From a virus, in UHGV virus genome UHGV-0309502: a stretch of DNA of 35,430 nucleotides; one strand, written 5' to 3'. This document shows, in pieces, positions 1-35,303 of this stretch (its first letter is position 1; the number at the start of each line of letters is the position of its first letter). The notes under the pieces were generated by a model. It was not told the origin of the DNA, did not search any database, and worked only from the letters and a program-made list of their open reading frames with translations. A program made the position numbers and the translations under genes.

Positions 1-2
1 TG

Positions 3-137
3 CGCCGCATGGATGAAATCATGGAGGCTCTTGATAATCGTTCGTCAATGGATTGGTGTGTTGCTGTCCATGATATGAATGCAGGGTTTGATGAAAAGAT
101 TTTGTTCCCCTCATCAGTTGAAAGCACAGCAGGATAA
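3..137 (+). CDS. hypothetical protein, 3'-partial (C-terminal 44 codons)
   Basis: Only frame open from the window edge; TAA at 135-137; terminator hairpin follows. Frame is continuous with the 5'-partial ORF at 35304..35430 if the window ends are joined. Confidence 0.4.
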   Translation, partial: RRMDEIMEALDNRSSMDWCVAVHDMNAGFDEKILFPSSVESTAG

Positions 138-172
138 GGACCCAGCAAATATACACAACCTATAAAACACTA

Positions 173-198
173 AAGCGCCTCAGGGGCGCTTTTTGTTT
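173..198 (+). terminator. rho-independent terminator
   Basis: Stem AAGCGCC/GGCGCTT with 5-nt loop, followed by a T-run, about 35 nt after the stop at 137. Confidence 0.55.
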
Positions 199-596
199 GC
201 ACAAAAGTGCACAAATTTGCACAATTTTTTTGAACGACTTTTTACCCTTCCGGCCCGCATGGCGGCTGGATCCGTCAAGGATCCGTGCGTGCACAAAAAA
301 ACGCGCTTTTTCTGCGCGCAGGTGACGGGGGAACAGCCCGCGTTTCAGGGGGTAAATAGCATTCCCTGAACGATGTCGCAGAGACACAACAGAATGGCCA
401 TATTTCTCACGCTGAGCATGAAAAAGGCGTGAGGGCTTTTGATTTGATGGGGTGAAAGGTAAGGCCGTCAAAATCGCACTGAGGCAGCGAGAACATACAG
501 TCAACGCGGTGGAATTGCGTAAGAGTCTGACCGTCGATGGTGGCGATAAACTGGAAGGCGTCGTGAAATTATCTGATTGATACAGGAGCTGGAGAG

Positions 597-623
597 CCGG
601 GGCATAAATTTTTTATGCCCCGG
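597..623. terminator. perfect palindromic hairpin, bidirectional terminator-like
   Basis: CCGGGGCATAAA-ttt-TTTATGCCCCGG, 12-bp perfect arms, A/T-rich on both sides; about 100 bp upstream of the ORF at 724. Confidence 0.4.
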
Positions 624-723
624 CGAAGCAGCAGACAAGCGAAGCGCGTCAGCGATACGGCACCTTGCCGACCATACTTCATAAGTGCAAAATACGAGCA
701 AAGAAATCAATGGAGGCTGTCTT

Positions 724-1248
724 ATGGTCATTAATTACAAGCAGTTAAGAGAAAAACGGGAGCAGGTAAAGGAGAGCTTTCGCCGCAATGAAGATCTGAC
801 CCCGCTTGTACGCCTTGCCCAGGGCATTGTTGATGCTTATGAAATCTCGCTGGAGCTGCCATCACAGACCTGGACAGATAGCGACGGTAATCGCCAGCAT
901 TACGTTTCATGCGGACTGGAAGCAGCCGAAGGATTTCGCAGAATGCCTTTATCCCAGATCCCTGCCGCTACCCCCAAAGCATGGGGCAGCAATGATGAGC
1001 GAAAACTGACTTTTAGTATTGAAACGGTGGTTGACGACACACCTGGCGAAGTCGCGTTCGTACACACTCCTGTTTCGATCGCAATGTATAACGATGAAAT
1101 ACAGGTTCGCGTTAATAATAATATCGTGCCACTTAAAGAAGGTAATTCACCCTACACCACCGTTTGTGAAGCCATTCAATATTACGTTCTCTCTGAAATT
1201 GATAATCTCAAGCCTGACGGCACCCAGAAAATGGTTCAACTCTGGTAA
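724..1248 (+). CDS. hypothetical protein (174 aa), cargo gene beside the portal gene
   Basis: ORF-track frame 685..1248; ATG at 724 is preceded by GGAGG at 7-nt spacing; ends in a hairpin terminator; no family recognised by eye. Confidence 0.55.
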   Translation: MVINYKQLREKREQVKESFRRNEDLTPLVRLAQGIVDAYEISLELPSQTWTDSDGNRQHYVSCGLEAAEGFRRMPLSQIPAATPKAWGSNDERKLTFSIETVVDDTPGEVAFVHTPVSIAMYNDEIQVRVNNNIVPLKEGNSPYTTVCEAIQYYVLSEIDNLKPDGTQKMVQLW

Positions 1249-1253
1249 AAAGG

Positions 1254-1280
1254 ACAGCCCCATCACGGGGCTGTTTTTTC
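1254..1280. terminator. bidirectional terminator hairpin between convergent genes
   Basis: ACAGCCCC-atca-GGGGCTGT followed by TTTTTT; A-run on the other strand; overlaps the 3' end of Q. Confidence 0.5.
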
Positions 1281-2309
1281 ATCAAGAAGAGCATAAGAGT
1301 TAAAACGGATCACCTCTTCGCCAAGCCAGTCATTGATGTGCTTCATAGCCTCCATGACGGGCATCAGCTCGTTAATTGCGTAAACCCGCGCTGCCTTCTC
1401 CACATCGCCAAACGCACTTTTTTCGCCCGGCATCGCCCCCATCAGTTGCGGCGGAACGCGGTGCGCAGCCAGCACATCATCACGGGATGCCGCCTTAACA
1501 TTCATGAATTCATCTTTTGCGGTGATCTGCTGGAACGGCAAAATTTGCACCCCCTCTTTGCCCCCGTTGGGCGCATGAATGAGCACGTTTTTAAACGCAC
1601 CACCACCACGTGCCCCCTGTAGCGTTTCTTTCAGGGAGTCCATGCTTTCGCGGTTTACCTGCGCTGCACCGATGTAGATGATGCACCCGGCGTGGGATCC
1701 GTTGTCGTAGTACAGTTTTCTGAACATGTCCGCCGAATGAGAAAGGCTGGCCGAGAGTAATGCGCCAAGATATTCCGGCATGCCGTAGATTTCCTGGTTA
1801 ATATCCGGATTCATCAGGTGGCACACTTTGCCAGGACGAAACTGAAACGCGTCCTTGCCATCCTGCACATACCACCATGATTCAAGATCGCTTCCGCGTC
1901 GCATGTATTTCGCCAGGGCGTGCCGTAATTTAAGCGGTTCGCCGAGCATATTGCTTCGAAGCTCAAGGAATGCGTTACCGAACACAAACCAGTCCAGCGC
2001 CAGCGCCGAGAAATCCTGCCGGGAAAGCAGCGGGTGCGGGATGTAGCAACCGAGTAATACATTGCGCTTAAAGTAAAGCGCAGACTGATGCCAGGACGTT
2101 TGCCGGGCAGCTCTTGCCAGACCGTACCAGTCCACCGGGGTTTCATACCACCGCCCGTTATCAGCACAGTACATATTGTCCAGCAGGTCATGCCCGGTCA
2201 GGCGATAAGGACCATCAAATGTGAATGCACTGAGCGATGATTCTTTCCTGAGCGCATCAGCGAGATCAATGCGTGAACTCATGCGCACTTTTTTATTTTT
2301 TCTGCTCAT
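1263..2309 (-). CDS. Q: portal (capsid vertex) protein, P2 gpQ family
   Basis: 348-aa ORF; position and orientation paired with the terminase gene as in the P2 PQ operon; sequence resembles recalled gpQ. Confidence 0.85.
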   Translation of the reverse strand: MSRKNKKVRMSSRIDLADALRKESSLSAFTFDGPYRLTGHDLLDNMYCADNGRWYETPVDWYGLARAARQTSWHQSALYFKRNVLLGCYIPHPLLSRQDFSALALDWFVFGNAFLELRSNMLGEPLKLRHALAKYMRRGSDLESWWYVQDGKDAFQFRPGKVCHLMNPDINQEIYGMPEYLGALLSASLSHSADMFRKLYYDNGSHAGCIIYIGAAQVNRESMDSLKETLQGARGGGAFKNVLIHAPNGGKEGVQILPFQQITAKDEFMNVKAASRDDVLAAHRVPPQLMGAMPGEKSAFGDVEKAARVYAINELMPVMEAMKHINDWLGEEVIRFNSYALLDEKTAP

Positions 2310-4060
2310 CAGAACTCCATAACTGTGAAACGCTCGTTTTCTCCTTCGCCGCCAATTGGTTCGTTAATGACAGCAAGCATGGTTGCCCACGCAAGGTCGC
2401 CGTGGCTGATCCCCCTCGCGCGGTCCGTTTCGTAAGTGATAAAGCCGCCCGGTGTTTTCACCTTACGCACGGCGTTAAAGGCTGCGACCAGCTCGCGTTC
2501 GGCGCGATCGTATTCCCACCGCCCGGCACGCATTATTTGCAGCATTTTCAGTACCAGCGACCGTTTTGATGACAGCGTGAAGGTGTACGGAATAGCAGCA
2601 GGGAAAAACCGTTTCACTATCTGATAAACAGCCTCCCCGTTCCCGCCCGTCACATCAATGCCGATGTGTTCCACGTTGTAGCGACACGTGAACTCTTCAA
2701 TGACTCTGGCCTGTTCTTCAAACTCCAGCCCCTGAACGCGTCGCGTCTCCACCGTTCGAAAACGGCCACCAGGAACAGACGGAGGAACCACCACGGACAC
2801 AGCGCCGCTGTCGCCGTTGCCACTGCTGCCGTTTGCGTCATACCCAATCCATACCGGACGATTCCCCATCGGGCGGGGAGCAAAAGGTTTCCAGTCTTTC
2901 CAGTCGTCGTATCCGTCAACACCACAGCCAATCAGGATATTCAGGTTAAATGCCGATTCCCCTTCGCGGACAAACTCACACATATAGAGATTGAGGAACT
3001 CGTCTTCGGTGTTTTCATCACGAATTTCATCAATATCGGTGTGTTTCCAGCCGTGATTAACCACATCTTCCAGCGTGACAATTTGCCGCCACGTCCGGTC
3101 AGGGCAGATAAGCCCGTTATGCAGCGTTTTCCAGTCCACAGAAAAACGCTGGCGTTTATGCGTGGCCTTTTTCTCGTTCCAGCGGTCGCCGTTCCAGTAG
3201 GCGTATGCCTCGTGCGTTTCGGTGGATGGCGTGGAGAAGTAGGTGCGCCGCAGTCCGCTGAGGGTTGCCATAGCGCCAGCCACCTTGCGCAGTTCAGCAA
3301 AGCGACTGACCCAGAAAAATTCATCAAAATAAAAATTGCCCGTATAGGACTGCGCCGACGCAGCAGAAGTGCCGAGAAAATGCAGCTCTGCGCCGTTGGA
3401 GAGGATGATTTTATCGCCCCCTTTCAGCTCCACATCAACTTCAGCCGCGGCCTTCTGAATAATGCTTTTAAACTGGAACGCCTGACGACGCGACGCAGAC
3501 AAAAAAATCTGGTTACGCTGGTAAGGTTGCGCCACATCGTCACGCAGCGCCATCAGCAGTGCTTCCTGTGCAAAATACCAGGTCGCGCCAATCTGTCGGG
3601 ATTTCAGGATCATCCTGTTACGTATCCCGGCTTCCCTGCAAAGGGTCAGGGAGTCAAACCAGCCCCGCTGATGCCACTCCAGCCTGCTGATGATTTTTTC
3701 CCGCAGTGCGACAATCTGTTCCGGCGTGAAATGATTTTTGAGTTTTTTCGCCCGGCCTTTCTTTCCTGTGGCCGTCGCATCCGGCTGGCCATCATGCATT
3801 TTTTTAAGCTGCCGGGTCAGCAGGTCTATTTCCTTAAAGTCACCGCCTGTTTTATTCTGTTTTTCAGTAAGCTGGATGAGGCGCGCATCGATGGACTGCG
3901 TGACACGCTGCACGGGTGGCGTTTCATCCCACTGGTCGCGTTTTTTCCACGCATAAATCGTGTTCGGGTTTATTCCCATCAGACGTGATATTTCTGCGGG
4001 CGGATAACCCTGCCAGTAAAGTTGCCGCGCACGCTGGCGCACAAAAGCGTCCTGAATCAT
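2309..4060 (-). CDS. P: terminase large (ATPase) subunit, P2 gpP family
   Basis: 583-aa ORF; 1-nt overlap with Q; divergent from the O-N-M capsid operon as in P2. Confidence 0.85.
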   Translation of the reverse strand: MIQDAFVRQRARQLYWQGYPPAEISRLMGINPNTIYAWKKRDQWDETPPVQRVTQSIDARLIQLTEKQNKTGGDFKEIDLLTRQLKKMHDGQPDATATGKKGRAKKLKNHFTPEQIVALREKIISRLEWHQRGWFDSLTLCREAGIRNRMILKSRQIGATWYFAQEALLMALRDDVAQPYQRNQIFLSASRRQAFQFKSIIQKAAAEVDVELKGGDKIILSNGAELHFLGTSAASAQSYTGNFYFDEFFWVSRFAELRKVAGAMATLSGLRRTYFSTPSTETHEAYAYWNGDRWNEKKATHKRQRFSVDWKTLHNGLICPDRTWRQIVTLEDVVNHGWKHTDIDEIRDENTEDEFLNLYMCEFVREGESAFNLNILIGCGVDGYDDWKDWKPFAPRPMGNRPVWIGYDANGSSGNGDSGAVSVVVPPSVPGGRFRTVETRRVQGLEFEEQARVIEEFTCRYNVEHIGIDVTGGNGEAVYQIVKRFFPAAIPYTFTLSSKRSLVLKMLQIMRAGRWEYDRAERELVAAFNAVRKVKTPGGFITYETDRARGISHGDLAWATMLAVINEPIGGEGENERFTVMEF

Positions 4061-6172: not shown

Positions 6173-6973
6173 ATGATTACTCCTGCACAACAACACTGGC
6201 AGAACGTGATGGCACAGCGCGCAGGCCGGGCGAATGAAGGTGTGGACCACGCCGCGTGTACCGCGCATGAAGAGGTGCTGTATCGTCTGCGTCTGGCACA
6301 GGCCAGGCTAAAGGCCATACAGGCCAGAAGCGCGAAAGCCGCCATCAAAAAAGAGTTGTTGCCGGACTTTTCCGGCTGGATTGAGGGAACGCTGGAGGCT
6401 GACGGCGGGCAACAGGACGAAGTAATTGCCACGCTGATGGTGTGGGCGATTGACTGCGGCGATCTTCCGCTGGCGCTGCGTATTGGTGCATATGTGGTCC
6501 GTCACAACCTCATCATGCCGGATAACTTTGGCCGTACTGCTGCCACGGTACTGACCGAAGAAATCTGCAACCCGGTACTGACGCAGGCCGGGACGGATGC
6601 CGACGCGGATTTATCCGCCTTTATCGAACCACTGGACACACTTTGGGAAATTGTCGCCAACCAGGACATTCCGGACGAAGTGCGCGCCAAATTATGCAAG
6701 GCGTGTGCCTTTGCCCGTCGTGGCCTGACCGATGCAGACAACATGGCCTCATCACTGAAGCTGCTGCGCGAAGCGATGCACCTGAACCCGAACGCAGGTG
6801 TGAAACGCGAGATTGCAACCCTTTCCCGCGCCCTGAAAAAAGCCGATTCCGCAGCCGAACCAGAAGACGCCAGCGCACAGCAGGCGCAGGACGAAAGCAG
6901 CAAAAGTAAAAAGACAACGCGGAAGCCTGCAACACGAAAAACCACCGCGACGCAGAAGGCAAAGCGCGGTTAA
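6173..6973 (+). CDS. M: terminase small/endonuclease subunit, P2 gpM family
   Basis: 266-aa ORF; strong resemblance to recalled gpM (ITPAQQHW..., DEVRAKL, AGVKREI); basic Lys/Arg-rich C-terminus. Confidence 0.8.
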   Translation: MITPAQQHWQNVMAQRAGRANEGVDHAACTAHEEVLYRLRLAQARLKAIQARSAKAAIKKELLPDFSGWIEGTLEADGGQQDEVIATLMVWAIDCGDLPLALRIGAYVVRHNLIMPDNFGRTAATVLTEEICNPVLTQAGTDADADLSAFIEPLDTLWEIVANQDIPDEVRAKLCKACAFARRGLTDADNMASSLKLLREAMHLNPNAGVKREIATLSRALKKADSAAEPEDASAQQAQDESSKSKKTTRKPATRKTTATQKAKRG

Positions 6974-7074
6974 CGACTGACCCCGTCAGCGGGCGGCGTG
7001 CGCGGTGTTCCGGTTTGACTCCGTGACCGTTTACACCGCGCACCCACCGCCCGATTTTTTCAGGAGTGAACCCC

Positions 7075-7569
7075 ATGAGTATGGTTGCCAGAACTAACCC
7101 CGGCCCCGCAGAGGACGACATCACCGATACCGATGATGGCGACACTCGCATTTCAGCGGGTGCATTCTGGCCGGATATTGTGCTGCGTGAGCTGCGTCTG
7201 GCGGTACGACTGCCGGGCCGCGTGACCACCTCCCGCCTGCTGCATACCGCCACCGGGGCCATAGCACACGTTACCCGCGAGCTGGAAGCATGGCAGCAGG
7301 AACAACAGGCGGCTGGCTATCAGACGCTGGCCGATGTTCCGGCCCCTGTAATTAACGGAGAAAGCGTCAATCTCTGGCACTGGCGCAATGCTGTTTATAC
7401 CGCCACACGCGCCCTGATTCTGGAGCGTTACCGCGATGCGGACACAACGGACAAGGGCGACCGCCGGGCGGACGCACTGGATATACAGACATCGGATTTG
7501 TGGCGCGATGTGAGCTGGGCCATCTCTGACATTCTGGGACGACCGCGAATGTTTGCGGAGCTGTGCTGA
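7075..7569 (+). CDS. L: head completion/stabilisation protein, P2 gpL family
   Basis: ORF frame 7066..7569; ATG at 7075 preceded by AGGAG; synteny after M. Confidence 0.75.
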   Translation: MSMVARTNPGPAEDDITDTDDGDTRISAGAFWPDIVLRELRLAVRLPGRVTTSRLLHTATGAIAHVTRELEAWQQEQQAAGYQTLADVPAPVINGESVNLWHWRNAVYTATRALILERYRDADTTDKGDRRADALDIQTSDLWRDVSWAISDILGRPRMFAELC

Positions 7570-7769
7570 TGAAAGTGAAGGCACTGGAAGGCGACACCGT
7601 GGATTCGCTCTGTTTCCGGTACTACGGCACGACACAGGGCGTCACCGAAAAGGTGCTGGATGCCAACCCCGGACTCTGTCAGCAGGTATTTCTGGACGCC
7701 GGGCAGGAAGTGGAGATGCCGGAGCCGGAGAAGAAGAAACGAGAAATGATTCAGTTGTGGGGGGAGTAG
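7569..7769 (+). CDS. X: tail protein X (LysM-like), P2 gpX family
   Basis: ATG at 7569 overlaps the L stop (TGATG); 66-aa product MKVKALEGDTVDSLCFRYYG... matches the recalled gpX pattern. Confidence 0.75.
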   Translation: MKVKALEGDTVDSLCFRYYGTTQGVTEKVLDANPGLCQQVFLDAGQEVEMPEPEKKKREMIQLWGE

Positions 7770-7771
7770 CA

Positions 7772-8095
7772 GTGAGCACCATTCAAACAGGGATCACAGA
7801 GCAGGTTATTGCGTGGCTCTTTGACCACCTGCCAACGGTGTATGCAGTAGGCGCGGCTGTCAGCATTTCCGCGCTGATGAGTCTTTATGACGGACGAACA
7901 CTGGTTCAGACCGTAACGGGATCGCTGGCGTGCGGCGTTCTTGCCATGGCCGTGGCCGGGTCGCTGCGCTTCTTCGGGATCCCTGAGGATGCAGTGACGT
8001 TTTTTGGTGCCTCAATCGGTTTTATGGGCGCAGAGAAAGCACGCGACAAGGTTATTGCAATATTTGATCGCAGGGTGAAGGAGAGGAACGAATGA
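7772..8095 (+). CDS. holin (about 107 aa, three predicted transmembrane segments)
   Basis: GTG start after a GGGGGAG Shine-Dalgarno; hydrophobic segments with charged C-terminus; immediately upstream of and overlapping the endolysin (ATGA). Confidence 0.55.
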   Translation: MSTIQTGITEQVIAWLFDHLPTVYAVGAAVSISALMSLYDGRTLVQTVTGSLACGVLAMAVAGSLRFFGIPEDAVTFFGASIGFMGAEKARDKVIAIFDRRVKERNE

Positions 8096-26480: not shown

Positions 26481-27482
26481 TTACCCTCTATTGTCAAAAG
26501 GGTTCAATTCAACAGCAGCCTCTAAATGACCTGGAGCAAAATGCGCATAACGCATAGTCATTTTTATATCGCTATGCCCCAGTATTTTTTGCAACACAAG
26601 AATATTTCCGCCCCGCATCATAAAATGACTGGCAAACGTGTGACGTAGCACATGAGTTAATTGCCCATCAGGAAGCTCGATCTTCGCTCTCTTAATTGCA
26701 GCGTCAAAAGCCTCATAACATGGTGAAAATAGCGCTCCTCGTTTTTTAGGAAGCATAGCCTGCAATTGAGGTGAAATCGGTACAGTGCGGTTCTTCTTTC
26801 CTTTAGTTTTAACAAATGTGATTCGACCGGGCAGTACTTGAGATTGCTTTAATCCTTCTGCTTCACTCCACCGAGCACCCGTCGCAAGCCCAATACGGAC
26901 AACAACCCCCAAATCTTTATTCCGTGACTCATCACACGCAATCAGAAGGCGTTCAATCTCATCTACATACAGAAACGCCAGTTCCTTTTCTTCCTCACGA
27001 AACTTGCGAATACCAGTCAGGGGGTTTTCACCAGACCACTCCCCAAGGCGCTTCAGTTCGGCAAAAACAGCATGTAGATATGACTGCTCGCGATTAACGG
27101 TTGCTTCACTAAGTTTTTTCTTCCCCTTGGGATTCCATTCTCCTGATAGCCTTCTTTCCCGATAAGTAGCAAACATATTTTTGTCAAACTGAGAAGCAAA
27201 TGGATCTCCCAGCCTGGAACAAATCGCCTCAAGTTTGACTTTGCGCTCTGCACCAGAGGACAAGGTTTTACCGTACATCTCAAACCAACGAGCAATCAAC
27301 TCAGAAAGACGAGGACCAGAACCATCTTGAAACTCGTCTCCAACTCTACTATTCATTAAACGGCGCTCATAAGAGAGCGCCTCACTTTTTGTCGCAAACT
27401 GTTTACGAATGCGTTTTCCCGATGCCCCGTAGGGATAACATTCGCAAAGCCATTTACCTGATGGAATCTTACGAACCGACAT
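26481..27482 (-). CDS. int: tyrosine integrase, P2 Int family
   Basis: 333 aa; GKRIRKQF, GARWSEA, RTVPIS, HVLRHTFASHFMMRGG, MRYAHFAP match the recalled P2 Int pattern; adjacent to the att core. Confidence 0.9.
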   Translation of the reverse strand: MSVRKIPSGKWLCECYPYGASGKRIRKQFATKSEALSYERRLMNSRVGDEFQDGSGPRLSELIARWFEMYGKTLSSGAERKVKLEAICSRLGDPFASQFDKNMFATYRERRLSGEWNPKGKKKLSEATVNREQSYLHAVFAELKRLGEWSGENPLTGIRKFREEEKELAFLYVDEIERLLIACDESRNKDLGVVVRIGLATGARWSEAEGLKQSQVLPGRITFVKTKGKKNRTVPISPQLQAMLPKKRGALFSPCYEAFDAAIKRAKIELPDGQLTHVLRHTFASHFMMRGGNILVLQKILGHSDIKMTMRYAHFAPGHLEAAVELNPFDNRG

Positions 27483-31507: not shown

Positions 31508-34330
31508 ATGACGGCAGAGTACATCAGGGACTGGCAACAACCGCGCCACGCAGTGGGGCGTGAAGGAACGGGGATCCCCGCTCCTGAATCCGCGCTTTCC
31601 TCCTGGCTGGATGCCTACCGGGCAGAGAACGAGCGCCGCCAGGAAATGGCTGATGCGGCGTTCTCCGCCACGCCGCTGGGCAACCTGATTAATAAAAGCC
31701 TAGACGCACAGGAAAAACAGGACAAAACAATCACACTGGCAGGAGACGCCAGAAAACAGGCACGCGGCGCGGTAGATGAGGCCATGGCCTCACTGCGCCT
31801 GCTGCCGTCCTATCTGCGCGATCCGCTTATTCGCCACCTCTCCTTCCTGCGCAAAAAACAGGAAGCCGATCGTCAGCAAGGAAAAAACGCCAGGCAGGCA
31901 GAACGCTATGCGCGTGGGACCCTGCGCAAAATATTCGAACGTCTGGAGCGCACCGATCACCGCTGGCTGACATCGGGTTATCGCTCCCTTGCCGGACGTG
32001 AACGCCTGGACGATTTGATTTACCTGCCGCAACTCAACAAACACCAGATACAGACGCTGGCCACCATGACGGCGGCGATGTTCAGCAGCACCTTCGAAAA
32101 ACTCTGCGATGGTTTTGGCGCGACTGATGGCGAGCTGACCATGGATGTAACGCTGAAGGCGTATCAGATGCTGGCCCGCATGGCGTTACACTTACACGCC
32201 ATGCCTCCGCATTATGACGCACTGACAACAGACAAAGACCGGAGGCACGAACCGGACACAGAACTGCTGCCGGGCGCAATCCTTCGCCTGACCTGTGCGG
32301 AATGGTGGAAACGCAAACTGTGGCTGTTACGTTGCGAGTGGAGAGAAGAACAACTCCGCGCCGCCTGTCTAGTTTCCAGAAAAACATCGCCCTATCTGAG
32401 CCAGGACGCGTTAAGCGAGTTTCGCGCACAGCGCGAGAAAACACGCGATTTCCTGAAAAGTTTCATGCTGGAAAATGAAGACGGGTTCACGATTGATCTC
32501 GAGACGGTGTATTACGCGGGAGTAAGTAACCCGGTTCACCGTAAGGCAGAAATGATGGCCACCATGAAGGGGCTGGAACTTCTGGCCGAAGCCCGTGGCG
32601 ACAAAGCGGTGTTTCTGACTGTCACCTGCCCGTCAAAATACCACGCCACAACGGAGAACGGTCATCCGAATCCCAAATGGAACGGGGCCACAATGCGCGA
32701 CTCCAGCGATTACCTGGTTAACACGTTTTTTGCGGCGGTCCGCAAAAAACTGAACCGCGACGACCTGCGCTGGTATGGCATCCGCACGGTGGAGCCTCAT
32801 CATGACGGCACCGTGCACTGGCATATGATGGTCTTTGCACATCCGGAAGAAATCGACACCATTGTGTCCCATACCCGCGATATTGCCATTCAGGAAGACC
32901 GCCACGAGCTGGGCAATGATATTACTCCGCGCTTTAAGGTGGAGTATGTCGACGGCTCAAAAGGCACGCCAACCAGCTACATCGCCACCTACATCGGAAA
33001 GAACCTGGACAGCCGCGCCGTGGATGGCATCGACCCGAAAACGGACAAGCCACGCGTGGACCACGAAACCGGAAAATCAATGGCCGAGAGCGTGGAACGC
33101 GCCATCGGCTGGGCGCGTCTTCACCGCGTCCGCCAGTTCCAGTTCTTTGGTATCCCCTCCCGTCAGGTATGGCGTGAACTCCGCCGCCTTGCCAGTCAGA
33201 TGGCCCGCAACCCGGAAGGTCCACAACGTCTGGAAAATGACGCAATGGATGCGGTACTCGCTGCCGCTGATGCCGGGTGTTTTGCCACCTACATTGAGAA
33301 ACAGGGTGGCGTACTTGTTCCACGCAAAGACTACCTGATTCGCACCGCCTACGACCTCGCAGAAGAGCTGAACGATTACGGCGAGCAAAGCGTACAGATT
33401 TACGGGATCTGGTCGCCACAAATCGGGGAATCTTCCCGCGTGTGCACGCACCCGGATAACTGGAAGCTGGTAAGACGTAAACCGGAAGCGGAAGACAGCG
33501 CCCGCGAAAATGGTTTTGACCTTCAGGGCGGCCCTGCCGCCCCTTGGACTCGTGGCAATAACTGTCCCCGTGTACAGGAAACGGACAACAACGGGACAGA
33601 ACAGCCGGAAGAACGGCCAGCACCGTGGCCGCAGCTCCCTGACGGCGTTGAAGTGAACGAATGGATGCGCTCACTGAAACGGCACGAACGCCGGGCGCTG
33701 ATGCGTTCGCTTCGTGACAAACAGGCAAAAAACAGCAGTGATGAAATGCAGAGCTGGACACAGAGCCGCAAACAGCAGCGGCCTTTGCCTGATAACCACG
33801 AATTACTCGCTAAAGAATGGCGGGAGTCTGCTGAATCTCTCGGCCTGCATATCGGTGAACAGCAGATGCAGCACCTGTTACGGGGCGGCAGTCTGTACGT
33901 TGACGGCAGCATCATTGCACCGCAGGGATTTGAAATTGTACGCAAACCGGATACCCGACCGGACAGCCGGATCACGCAGCTCTGGCAGCGCCTGAGCCGT
34001 AACCACGGCGTAAGCAGCACGGAGATCCGCCATAACCCGGTCGCCAGCTATCTGGAACAGCTGGGGGCATCAGACCCCGAAGCCGCCGCACGCCTGGCAT
34101 CCACACTTCAGCAAGACCAGAACACCATGAAAACACCCGTTACCGTGCTTTCTGACATGCTGCGCGCCATCCGCGACGCAGAGCACGCACAGAGAATCAG
34201 TGAAACCACTGAACGCGCCCGCCGCAAAGCAGACCTGCTGCGAGGTGGCCTGACCAGTGGAAACAAAAAACAGACAGAAACGGGATTCACAAATCCCGTA
34301 AATGAGCAAAAAACGCGCCGCGATATATGA
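31508..34330 (+). CDS. A: replication initiation endonuclease, P2 gpA (rolling-circle HUH) family
   Basis: 940 aa; metal-binding HWH in TVHWHMMVFAH and tyrosine pair in SYIATYIGKN typical of gpA-type Rep proteins; position after the early operon. Confidence 0.8.
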   Translation: MTAEYIRDWQQPRHAVGREGTGIPAPESALSSWLDAYRAENERRQEMADAAFSATPLGNLINKSLDAQEKQDKTITLAGDARKQARGAVDEAMASLRLLPSYLRDPLIRHLSFLRKKQEADRQQGKNARQAERYARGTLRKIFERLERTDHRWLTSGYRSLAGRERLDDLIYLPQLNKHQIQTLATMTAAMFSSTFEKLCDGFGATDGELTMDVTLKAYQMLARMALHLHAMPPHYDALTTDKDRRHEPDTELLPGAILRLTCAEWWKRKLWLLRCEWREEQLRAACLVSRKTSPYLSQDALSEFRAQREKTRDFLKSFMLENEDGFTIDLETVYYAGVSNPVHRKAEMMATMKGLELLAEARGDKAVFLTVTCPSKYHATTENGHPNPKWNGATMRDSSDYLVNTFFAAVRKKLNRDDLRWYGIRTVEPHHDGTVHWHMMVFAHPEEIDTIVSHTRDIAIQEDRHELGNDITPRFKVEYVDGSKGTPTSYIATYIGKNLDSRAVDGIDPKTDKPRVDHETGKSMAESVERAIGWARLHRVRQFQFFGIPSRQVWRELRRLASQMARNPEGPQRLENDAMDAVLAAADAGCFATYIEKQGGVLVPRKDYLIRTAYDLAEELNDYGEQSVQIYGIWSPQIGESSRVCTHPDNWKLVRRKPEAEDSARENGFDLQGGPAAPWTRGNNCPRVQETDNNGTEQPEERPAPWPQLPDGVEVNEWMRSLKRHERRALMRSLRDKQAKNSSDEMQSWTQSRKQQRPLPDNHELLAKEWRESAESLGLHIGEQQMQHLLRGGSLYVDGSIIAPQGFEIVRKPDTRPDSRITQLWQRLSRNHGVSSTEIRHNPVASYLEQLGASDPEAAARLASTLQQDQNTMKTPVTVLSDMLRAIRDAEHAQRISETTERARRKADLLRGGLTSGNKKQTETGFTNPVNEQKTRRDI

Positions 34331-34406: not shown

Positions 34407-34808
34407 ATGAAAATTTGTATCGATGACGGCTCCACCAACATCAAGCTGGCATGGACTGAGAACGGCGAACGCCGCAACGCCATCAGCCCGAACAGCTTCA
34501 AGTCGGAATGGTCTGCGCCGTTCGGTGGCACGCAGCCCGCGAACTACATGCTTGATGGCGTGCGCTATGGTTTTGATCCGGTCAGCGATCGCTTTGTCCA
34601 GACAACTGACACGCAATACCAGTACAGCGATGTGAATGTCATTGCCATTCATCACGCGCTGGTCAAATCAGGCATCACGCCACAGGAGGTGGATGTGGTT
34701 GTCACCCTGCCACTGAGCGAGTATTTCGACACAAACGCACAGCCGGACATAGCCAACATCAACCGCAAAAAAAGCCCAGGATTCCCGGGGCGGTTCAGAG
34801 GAGAGTGA
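34407..34808 (+). pseudogene. ParM/StbA-family actin-like ATPase, N-terminal fragment only (133 codons)
   Basis: MKICIDDGSTNIKLAW...ISPNSFK.EW...QYSDVNV.A.HHAL closely parallels the recalled R1 ParM N-terminus; similarity ends after NRKK and the frame stops far short of the ~320 aa of a full ParM. Confidence 0.55.
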
Positions 34809-34810
34809 GA

Positions 34811-35302
34811 ATGCAAATTTCACCGGTTACTCTTCGTGTTGCGAAGGCGTTTATATCCAGACATCACCGACACAATAAACCCCCGGTGGGGCATAAATTC
34901 AGCATTGGTCTGAGAAATGATGCCGGAGAATTGATAGGTGTGGCGACAGCCGGTAGACCTGTTGCACGACATTTGGACGATGGATTAACGCTTGAAGTAA
35001 ATCGCACATGTACCACAGGAGAACGCAACGCTAACAGCGCACTTTATGGTGCTGTCTGGCGGGCAGCAAAGGCTATGGGTTATCAACGTTGTATTACGTA
35101 CACCCAGGCAGATGAATCAGGAGCATCTCTCCGCGCAGCTGGTTTTGTTCGTGTGAAAGAGCTTCCTCCAAGAAAAAGCTGGGCGGAATCAAGCGTCGCC
35201 CTGCGGAGTAAACGCGATCCGGTCGGAAACGGTGGTGTTCCTCGTGTGCTCTGGGAAATCAGGAGAATGAGTACCACTGGCATTCGCATCAAAGGAGAGT
35301 GA
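34811..35302 (+). CDS. hypothetical protein (163 aa)
   Basis: ORF frame 34805..35302; ATG at 34811 after AGAGGAGAG; basic His-rich N-terminus (ISRHHRHNKPP). May belong to the Mom/GNAT-like acyltransferase-fold group sometimes annotated XF1762 family; that is an unverified recollection. Confidence 0.45.
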   Translation: MQISPVTLRVAKAFISRHHRHNKPPVGHKFSIGLRNDAGELIGVATAGRPVARHLDDGLTLEVNRTCTTGERNANSALYGAVWRAAKAMGYQRCITYTQADESGASLRAAGFVRVKELPPRKSWAESSVALRSKRDPVGNGGVPRVLWEIRRMSTTGIRIKGE

Positions 35303-35303
35303 T

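Follow-up and report, generated by a model that had tools for sequence, protein, structure and literature searches.

The ORF174 cassette

The stretch of DNA analyzed here (the window) is the 35,430 nt virus genome UHGV-0309502, the circularly permuted genome of a P88-like temperate phage (Xuanwuvirus, Peduoviridae) of the P2 family; in the stretches tested it is 99–100% identical to E. coli prophages and to phages PhiR44_2, 569R5, and 705R2. This report concerns an open reading frame (ORF) at 724–1248 on the + strand, here called ORF174, which encodes a 174 amino acid protein (19.8 kDa, isoelectric point (pI) 4.9, RefSeq WP_000236496) of the PHROG 5091 family. It lies between the probable cos site (discussed below) and the portal gene Q (1263–2309, − strand), and is convergent to the latter, as the initial annotation of this DNA had stated. 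A Shine-Dalgarno sequence, GGAGG (712–716, + strand), precedes the ATG at 724 by 7 nt, and its GGAG is invariant in the alignment of the locus. In five diverged homologs of the locus the alignment runs from GGAG-N7-ATG onward, and the encoded proteins all start MVINY, so the ATG at 724, not the upstream GTG at 685, is the start codon. Over 22 distinct alleles taken from IMG/VR, GenBank, and RefSeq loci, the ratio of nonsynonymous to synonymous substitution rates (dN/dS) of ORF174 is 0.095 (0.025 for the adjacent portal gene). The ribosome-binding site and this ratio agree with the earlier description of a well-formed ORF with a good Shine-Dalgarno sequence.

ORF174 is carried by an inserted cassette of ∼630 bp (∼653–1287), in whose place phages P88, Chuche, 520873, and phiSM have ∼18 bp. 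In MAFFT and blastn comparisons homology stops at 652–656 and restarts at 1288, and the flanks are 93–98% identical to those of P88, Chuche, 520873, and the Citrobacter phage phiSM. The left junction lies just after a hairpin at 596–624 and the right junction is within the last codons of Q, so that the last five codons of Q and its stop codon fall inside the cassette, which thereby supplies the last five residues of the portal protein (EKTAP* with the cassette and TQPTS* in P88). The first 60 nt segment at the 3′-end of Q is only 70% identical to P88, compared with 95–100% across the rest of the gene. Neither a target-site duplication nor terminal inverted repeats were found at the cassette ends (that is, no insertion sequence-like signature), which makes homologous recombination in the flanks the likely route of its arrival. 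This recombination would probably have taken place between the 596–624 hairpin and the 3′-end of Q, since the cassette comes with its own version of the final five Q codons and with a new terminator. The cassette has a GC content of 47.1%, lower than that of the window (52.7%) and of the adjacent Q gene (53.0%).

The cassette has a predicted σ70-like promoter at 665–693 on the + strand, with a −35 hexamer TTGCCG (665–670), a 17 nt spacer, and a −10 hexamer CAAAAT (688–693). It matches the consensus at only 8 of 12 positions and is under the threshold of the promoter scan. Both hexamers, their 17 nt spacing, and the Shine-Dalgarno sequence are nevertheless kept in the five loci, whose spacers diverge and whose proteins are 60–87% identical. 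Downstream, a hairpin with a T-run (1249–1279) forms a bidirectional intrinsic terminator with predicted folding energies of −22.2 kcal/mol (z −4.4) on the + strand and −19.0 kcal/mol (z −3.7) on the − strand. The Q stop codon (TGA, 1263–1265) falls in the loop of this hairpin; thus the terminator is truly common to ORF174 and the portal (P-Q) operon, and the sharing of a terminator with Q that was proposed at first holds for both strands.

Morons are optional, self-transcribed add-on genes of phages. The presence together of a promoter, a gene, a terminator, deviant composition, and a presence/absence pattern is a textbook fit to this description, and ORF174 can very likely be regarded as moron cargo and hence as an accessory gene, its promoter being a predicted one. 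The comparison of related phages that the initial annotation had proposed shows that the cassette is optional (∼630 bp vs. ∼18 bp). P88 and phiSM, neither of which has ORF174, are active phages (PMC6456863), so the gene is dispensable. The initial designation as an accessory gene is therefore sound: it is nonstructural, dispensable, and absent from close relatives that include these active phages.

A protein family of two phage types

ORF174 had been called an orphan, but its protein matches the PHROG 5091 hidden Markov model (HMM) over the full length of the profile (E = 1.4e-67, 227.5 bits; residues 1–168 on profile positions 1–164 of 164), all 42 of its aligned relatives match it as well, and the family extends across Enterobacterales prophages of two phage types. 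When 1.84 billion representative proteins were searched exhaustively with an HMM, 89 cluster representatives were obtained, mostly full-length and ∼155–175 amino acids long. The conserved motifs of the family are Y..SLxLP...W.D..G....YV and F.I.TVxDDSPxGG. ORF174 is a plain member of this PHROG, which carries no functional annotation, Pfam or NCBIfam model, or solved structure; accordingly, no Pfam or NCBIfam family was found for ORF174 or the 42 relatives. ORF174 matched no PADLOC family, and the 42 relatives gave only isolated, chance-level PADLOC matches (E ≥0.009). Nor is there homology to the conserved P2 structural or packaging genes, which the initial annotation had singled out as evidence that would speak against it; Pfam and NCBIfam gave no match, and P2 has no gene at this place. 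The exhaustive search also returned a 3,099 amino acid protein (P0049) with ten partial matches to the β-hairpin motif; these are probably repeats of an adhesin-type TVxDxxGG motif rather than a sign of domain fusion.

The relatives occupy a small number of positions. In all 41 P2-like loci from IMG/VR the gene adjoins the portal gene, with a gap of about 21 nt to the stop codon of Q, and the Salmonella relatives (60–62% identical) and a distant Morganella relative (23%) lie in the same portal-adjacent slot of P2-like phages. In Trabulsiella the family gene lies directly after gpA, and HicAB and Phd/Fic toxin-antitoxin modules come next. In this P2-like prophage of Trabulsiella guamensis (locus L012), a HicB-containing pair and a Phd/Fic pair were seen behind the family member at 6738–8053 of the locus, an arrangement in which the gpA-proximal part of the interval stacks toxin-antitoxin modules beside the family gene. 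More distant relatives (22–30% identical) come from viral contigs and from the lambdoid prophages of Edwardsiella, Xenorhabdus, and an Erwinia-like symbiont; a scan of genome contigs gave one locus, in Xenorhabdus. In these lambdoid genomes the gene lies either between the Q antiterminator gene and the holin-lysozyme-Rz cassette or between the lysis genes and terminase, and at most of the lambdoid loci inspected it has an intrinsic terminator-like hairpin on both its upstream and downstream sides and a promoter-like motif upstream. The antiterminator Q-to-holin and Rz-to-cos slots are those of stx and bor. The distant relatives of ORF174 lie in exactly these slots of lambdoid morons; the likeness to stx, bor, and the other named morons is one of architecture and position only, with no sequence or functional link to the ORF174 family.

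In two P2-like lineages (loci L020, 5354–5857, and L021, 5355–5858) a 167 amino acid distant paralog lies in tandem upstream of the ORF174 homolog (hhalign probability 98.6%, E = 1.4e-15), where it replaces the 42 amino acid ORF found at 452–580 of the window. A search of window positions 1–720 gave no remnant of such a paralog.

The cassette is present in 397 of 5,426 complete E. coli genomes (∼7%). About 1,135–1,140 of these genomes have P88-type flanks, and ∼35% of the latter carry the cassette; ORF174 is thus absent from ∼65% of P88-like prophages. The identical protein is encoded on >600 contigs, and 95% identical copies occur in Yersinia enterocolitica. When ORF174 and one distant relative (P0107) were compared by tblastn with 50,697 phage records, only four P88-like phages matched, and only two records place ORF174 on a plasmid. 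As judged from these sequences PHROG 5091 is a prophage-only family, confined to temperate phages of Enterobacterales, among which the insulated and selectively maintained cassette moves. Members of the cassette's family are widespread within this limit, being found in E. coli and also in Salmonella, Yersinia, Morganella, Edwardsiella, Xenorhabdus, and Erwinia-like bacteria. The hotspot content that lies upstream of ORF174 varies greatly among genomes and includes ParM/ParR with a ClpX zinc-finger protein, DUF4760, helix-turn-helix (HTH)/M78 peptidase, YafO, and Ead/Ea22 genes; in this window it consists of a truncated ParM and a weakly Mom-like gene. Because these contents differ so widely, ORF174 is a unit by itself rather than a member of an operon.

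The AlphaFold2 model of the protein has a predicted local distance difference test (pLDDT) value of 79 with 11 sequences and 90.1 with 42 (predicted template modeling score 0.80), with no change in topology. The predicted fold is α+β, with helices at residues 5–22 and 26–42, an antiparallel sheet at residues 49–135, and a C-terminal helix (145–159) that packs against the sheet. Conserved positions are mostly hydrophobic or aromatic core residues and the turn of the β-hairpin, and no catalytic constellation is apparent. The ORF174 protein is soluble and mildly acidic (net charge −7), and the whole family is acidic (pI 4.3–6.5). No signal peptide, DNA-binding motif, or enzymatic motif was found in it; since it has no hydrophobic segment (maximum Kyte-Doolittle value 0.86 in a 19 residue window) and its N-terminus is highly charged, it is predicted to be cytoplasmic. 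A search of the PDB with the family profile found no relative. Designed helical repeat proteins, matched in a single-sequence PDB search (E = 2.6e-7), were rejected as compositional and disappeared when the family profile was used. The remote homology and structure checks suggested at the outset have therefore given a PHROG match and a confident model, but no characterized relative.

Hotspot setting and possible functions

The P2 defense hotspot comprises the entire gpA-gpQ interval, cos included (PMC9122126; PMC9519451; Rousset 2022; hotspot #1 of Vassallo 2022). ORF174 is therefore inside the hotspot and not at its edge, where it had originally been placed; in the circularly permuted window its interval is the one between gene A (31,508–34,330) and Q. 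ORF174 shares this interval with the known P2 cargo (old, tin, and the systems of Rousset 2022 and Vassallo 2022), is like that cargo in being variable among close relatives, and is predicted to share its independent transcription as well; old and tin, however, lie between gpA and cos and are encoded on the other strand, whereas ORF174 is on the Q side. Homology to P2 Tin was considered and rejected (hhalign probability 0.2%). The exact ORF174 protein, WP_000236496, is catalogued as “hypothetical” hotspot cargo in Table S5A of Rousset 2022, alongside WP_000236495, a likely sibling with at least 167 entries there; the available portion of that work gives no sign of WP_000236496 among the systems cloned. 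No functional study or anti-phage report came to light in literature searches on the accessions, the PHROG identifier, Xuanwuvirus, and the names of the phages. ORF174 is thus an already catalogued, uncharacterized member of a prophage moron family within a known hotspot. The protein lies in the best-validated phage defense hotspot yet is labeled “hypothetical” everywhere; the present analysis gives a defined unit at 653–1287, a confident model with no known relative, and a definition of the family across two phage types.

The P2 family offers a classical example of a conversion gene placed between cos and Q, namely ctx of Pseudomonas phage phiCTX. The ctx cassette has the same place and orientation (cosL, promoter, ctx, terminators, convergent Q), and like ORF174 it has its own −35 and −10 elements (predicted in the case of ORF174) and its own terminators and is nonessential. 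CTX is a secreted pore-forming cytotoxin of 286 amino acids, whereas the 174 amino acid ORF174 protein is predicted to be cytoplasmic and has no signal peptide. Homology between the two was tried and rejected (hhalign probability 0.1%).

Our preferred reading, which we hold tentatively, is that ORF174 is a prophage-expressed binding protein for phage-phage conflict, that is, exclusion or defense. Its transcription in the lysogen would come from its own weak constitutive σ70 promoter, independently of the phage late operon. Its product, which may be a dimer held together through the sheet, would bind a protein partner and act stoichiometrically, and could serve in conflicts among mobile elements by excluding competing phages or satellites, as its hotspot neighbors do. 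A conflict role is suggested by the hotspot itself, by the toxin-antitoxin and defense cargo nearby, and by the published success rate with uncharacterized hotspot genes. Some observations weigh against it: ORF174 has no PADLOC match, and so no known or candidate defense homolog; its dN/dS has no arms-race signal; and nothing that matches it is among the systems that came from the Vassallo selection, although this last argument is weak. The explanation as a whole, in which moron status and functional guess are taken together, is possible but short of probable. A more specific proposal, which is doubtful, is that PHROG 5091 is a new single-protein, non-enzymatic immunity family of temperate Enterobacterales phages, expressed from the prophage against phages or satellites. 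In it a sheet-to-sheet dimer resembling actin-capping protein (CapZ) and the FP domain of PI31/Fbxo7, or a heterodimer where two paralogs lie in tandem, would capture a protein of the incoming phage or of a cos-hijacking satellite, and the fold of the protein would have no characterized relative.

Other readings account for parts of the same evidence. The annotation “hypothetical” and the presence of truncated copies in databases and at two IMG/VR loci might suggest a spurious or decaying ORF without function, but this is refuted by the selection and conservation data. The dN/dS of 0.095, the 89 diverged and mostly full-length representatives with their conserved motifs, and the confident fold (pLDDT 90) mean that ORF174 is not a chance ORF, and its ribosome-binding site and promoter are conserved as well. 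A host-directed lysogenic conversion factor, which would alter stress tolerance, metabolism, regulation, or virulence, suits the moron architecture in classical conversion slots (between cos and Q like ctx of phiCTX, and downstream of the lambdoid Q antiterminator gene, just where Stx phages have their Shiga-toxin genes). Clinical E. coli, ST131-type records among them, also often carry ORF174, and the P2 hotspot holds non-defense cargo too, such as partition systems and a cytolethal distending toxin. We nonetheless think conversion unlikely, given a protein with no signal peptide, DNA-binding motif, or enzymatic motif, no similarity to ctx, and no link to any host pathway.

The protein might instead have a counter-defense role, as a small acidic inhibitor that binds and neutralizes a host immune system, but several features make this quite unlikely. 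The family was found in temperate phages and prophages only, and the tblastn comparison with 50,697 phage records matched only four P88-like phages; the predicted promoter is of a constitutive type and the unit is insulated by terminators; and the late-region position in lambdoid phages would be too late for early counter-defense. In addition, neither Foldseek nor a sequence profile matched a solved anti-defense structure, and the net charge is far from that of DNA mimics. Finally, a nonessential helper of late functions (packaging, the portal, or modulation of lysis) might be expected beside the portal gene, where the P2-like loci of IMG/VR, Salmonella, and Morganella have it, or next to the lysis cassette or terminase as in the lambdoid relatives, and the cassette does provide the last residues of the portal protein. 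Such a helper is very improbable, however, since most P88-like prophages and the active phages P88 and phiSM do without the gene (PMC6456863), its orientation varies (convergent in P2-like phages, co-oriented in lambdoids, and after the early gene A in Trabulsiella), these positions are the usual permissive moron sites, and the protein is not similar to known packaging or lysis proteins. It seems reasonable to regard ORF174 as a sensible but ordinary candidate for a cloning test, not surprising in itself. If an exclusion or conversion activity is real, ORF174 would be a new non-enzymatic protein of that kind; otherwise it would be non-defense cargo of the hotspot.

The cos region and upstream interval

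When the window was compared directly with the P2 cos region by blastn, no match was obtained. The position of cos was worked out by homology instead, with the help of a brief stretch of sequence conserved in another P2-like prophage and of a MAFFT alignment. In a four-way MAFFT alignment, GGTGACGGGGGAACAGCCC at 321–339 lines up with the 19 nt cohesive end of P2, GGCGAGGCGGGGAAAGCAC, and with the GC hairpin that precedes it; about 13 of 19 positions match, and a similar GC hairpin lies immediately upstream in the window. Moreover, a 53 bp block that spans this site (window 290–342) is found again in an unrelated P2-like prophage, at a distance of 183 bp from its portal gene. It is thus probable that GGTGACGGGGGAACAGCCC is the cohesive-end sequence of the P88-like phages; it lies outside the cassette. 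The start of the P884B11 record (window 243) was considered as a cohesive end and rejected, and the ends of public P88-like records do not coincide with 321–339. The alignment with the P2 cohesive end and hairpin places ORF174 between cos and Q, and together with the recurring 53 bp block it upholds the location first given for the gene, between a putative cos site and the portal gene. The accompanying statement that this interval is empty of genes in P2 holds true: there, cosL is at 1–19, tQ at 160–181, and Q at 187–1221, and the 187 bp interval has only the terminator tQ.

Between cos and the cassette lie a possible gene and the conserved hairpin. The cos-to-hairpin slot is filled by the 42 amino acid ORF at 452–580 (+ strand), whose coding status is uncertain. 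The annotations of PhiR44_2 and P88 include this ORF, and it is conserved at the nucleotide level in P88-like phages; it has no Pfam match. The hairpin at 596–624 has a perfect 13 bp stem (−31.6 kcal/mol, z −7.7), with no U-tract on either strand. It is kept in the alignments of every P88-like phage examined and is the left homology anchor of the cassette. It seems to divide two variable slots and to act as an anchor for recombination. In P88 its counterpart is ∼28 nt beyond the portal stop codon, and at locus L020 the arms of a hairpin of this type seem, from a reading of the sequence, to reach 21 bp.

On the other side of ORF174, the terminase gene P (2309–4060, − strand) adjoins Q; the integrase gene is at 26,481–27,482 (− strand), and the replication gene A is on the + strand. 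An Rfam search of window positions 1–1400 found no RNA family. In the segment that runs from window position 34,407 to 35,430 and on into 1–137, the parM gene ends early, after 133 amino acids (StbA_N, E = 1.8e-63). Behind it come a 165 amino acid ORF with a weak match to the Mom family (E = 1e-4, below the Pfam cut-off) and then an 87 amino acid ORF that continues across the junction of the window ends. The final 140 nt of the latter are 95–98% identical to lambdoid and siphovirus records, and so it looks as though a small module common to several phage types has been inserted into parM. Right after a bidirectional terminator at 172–192 there are three tandem 10 bp direct repeats (nnTGCACAAn, 198–228). 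These lie ∼100 bp upstream of the inferred cos site, are kept at the end of the P884B11 record, and could be a protein-binding array, for example, a terminase or partition site.
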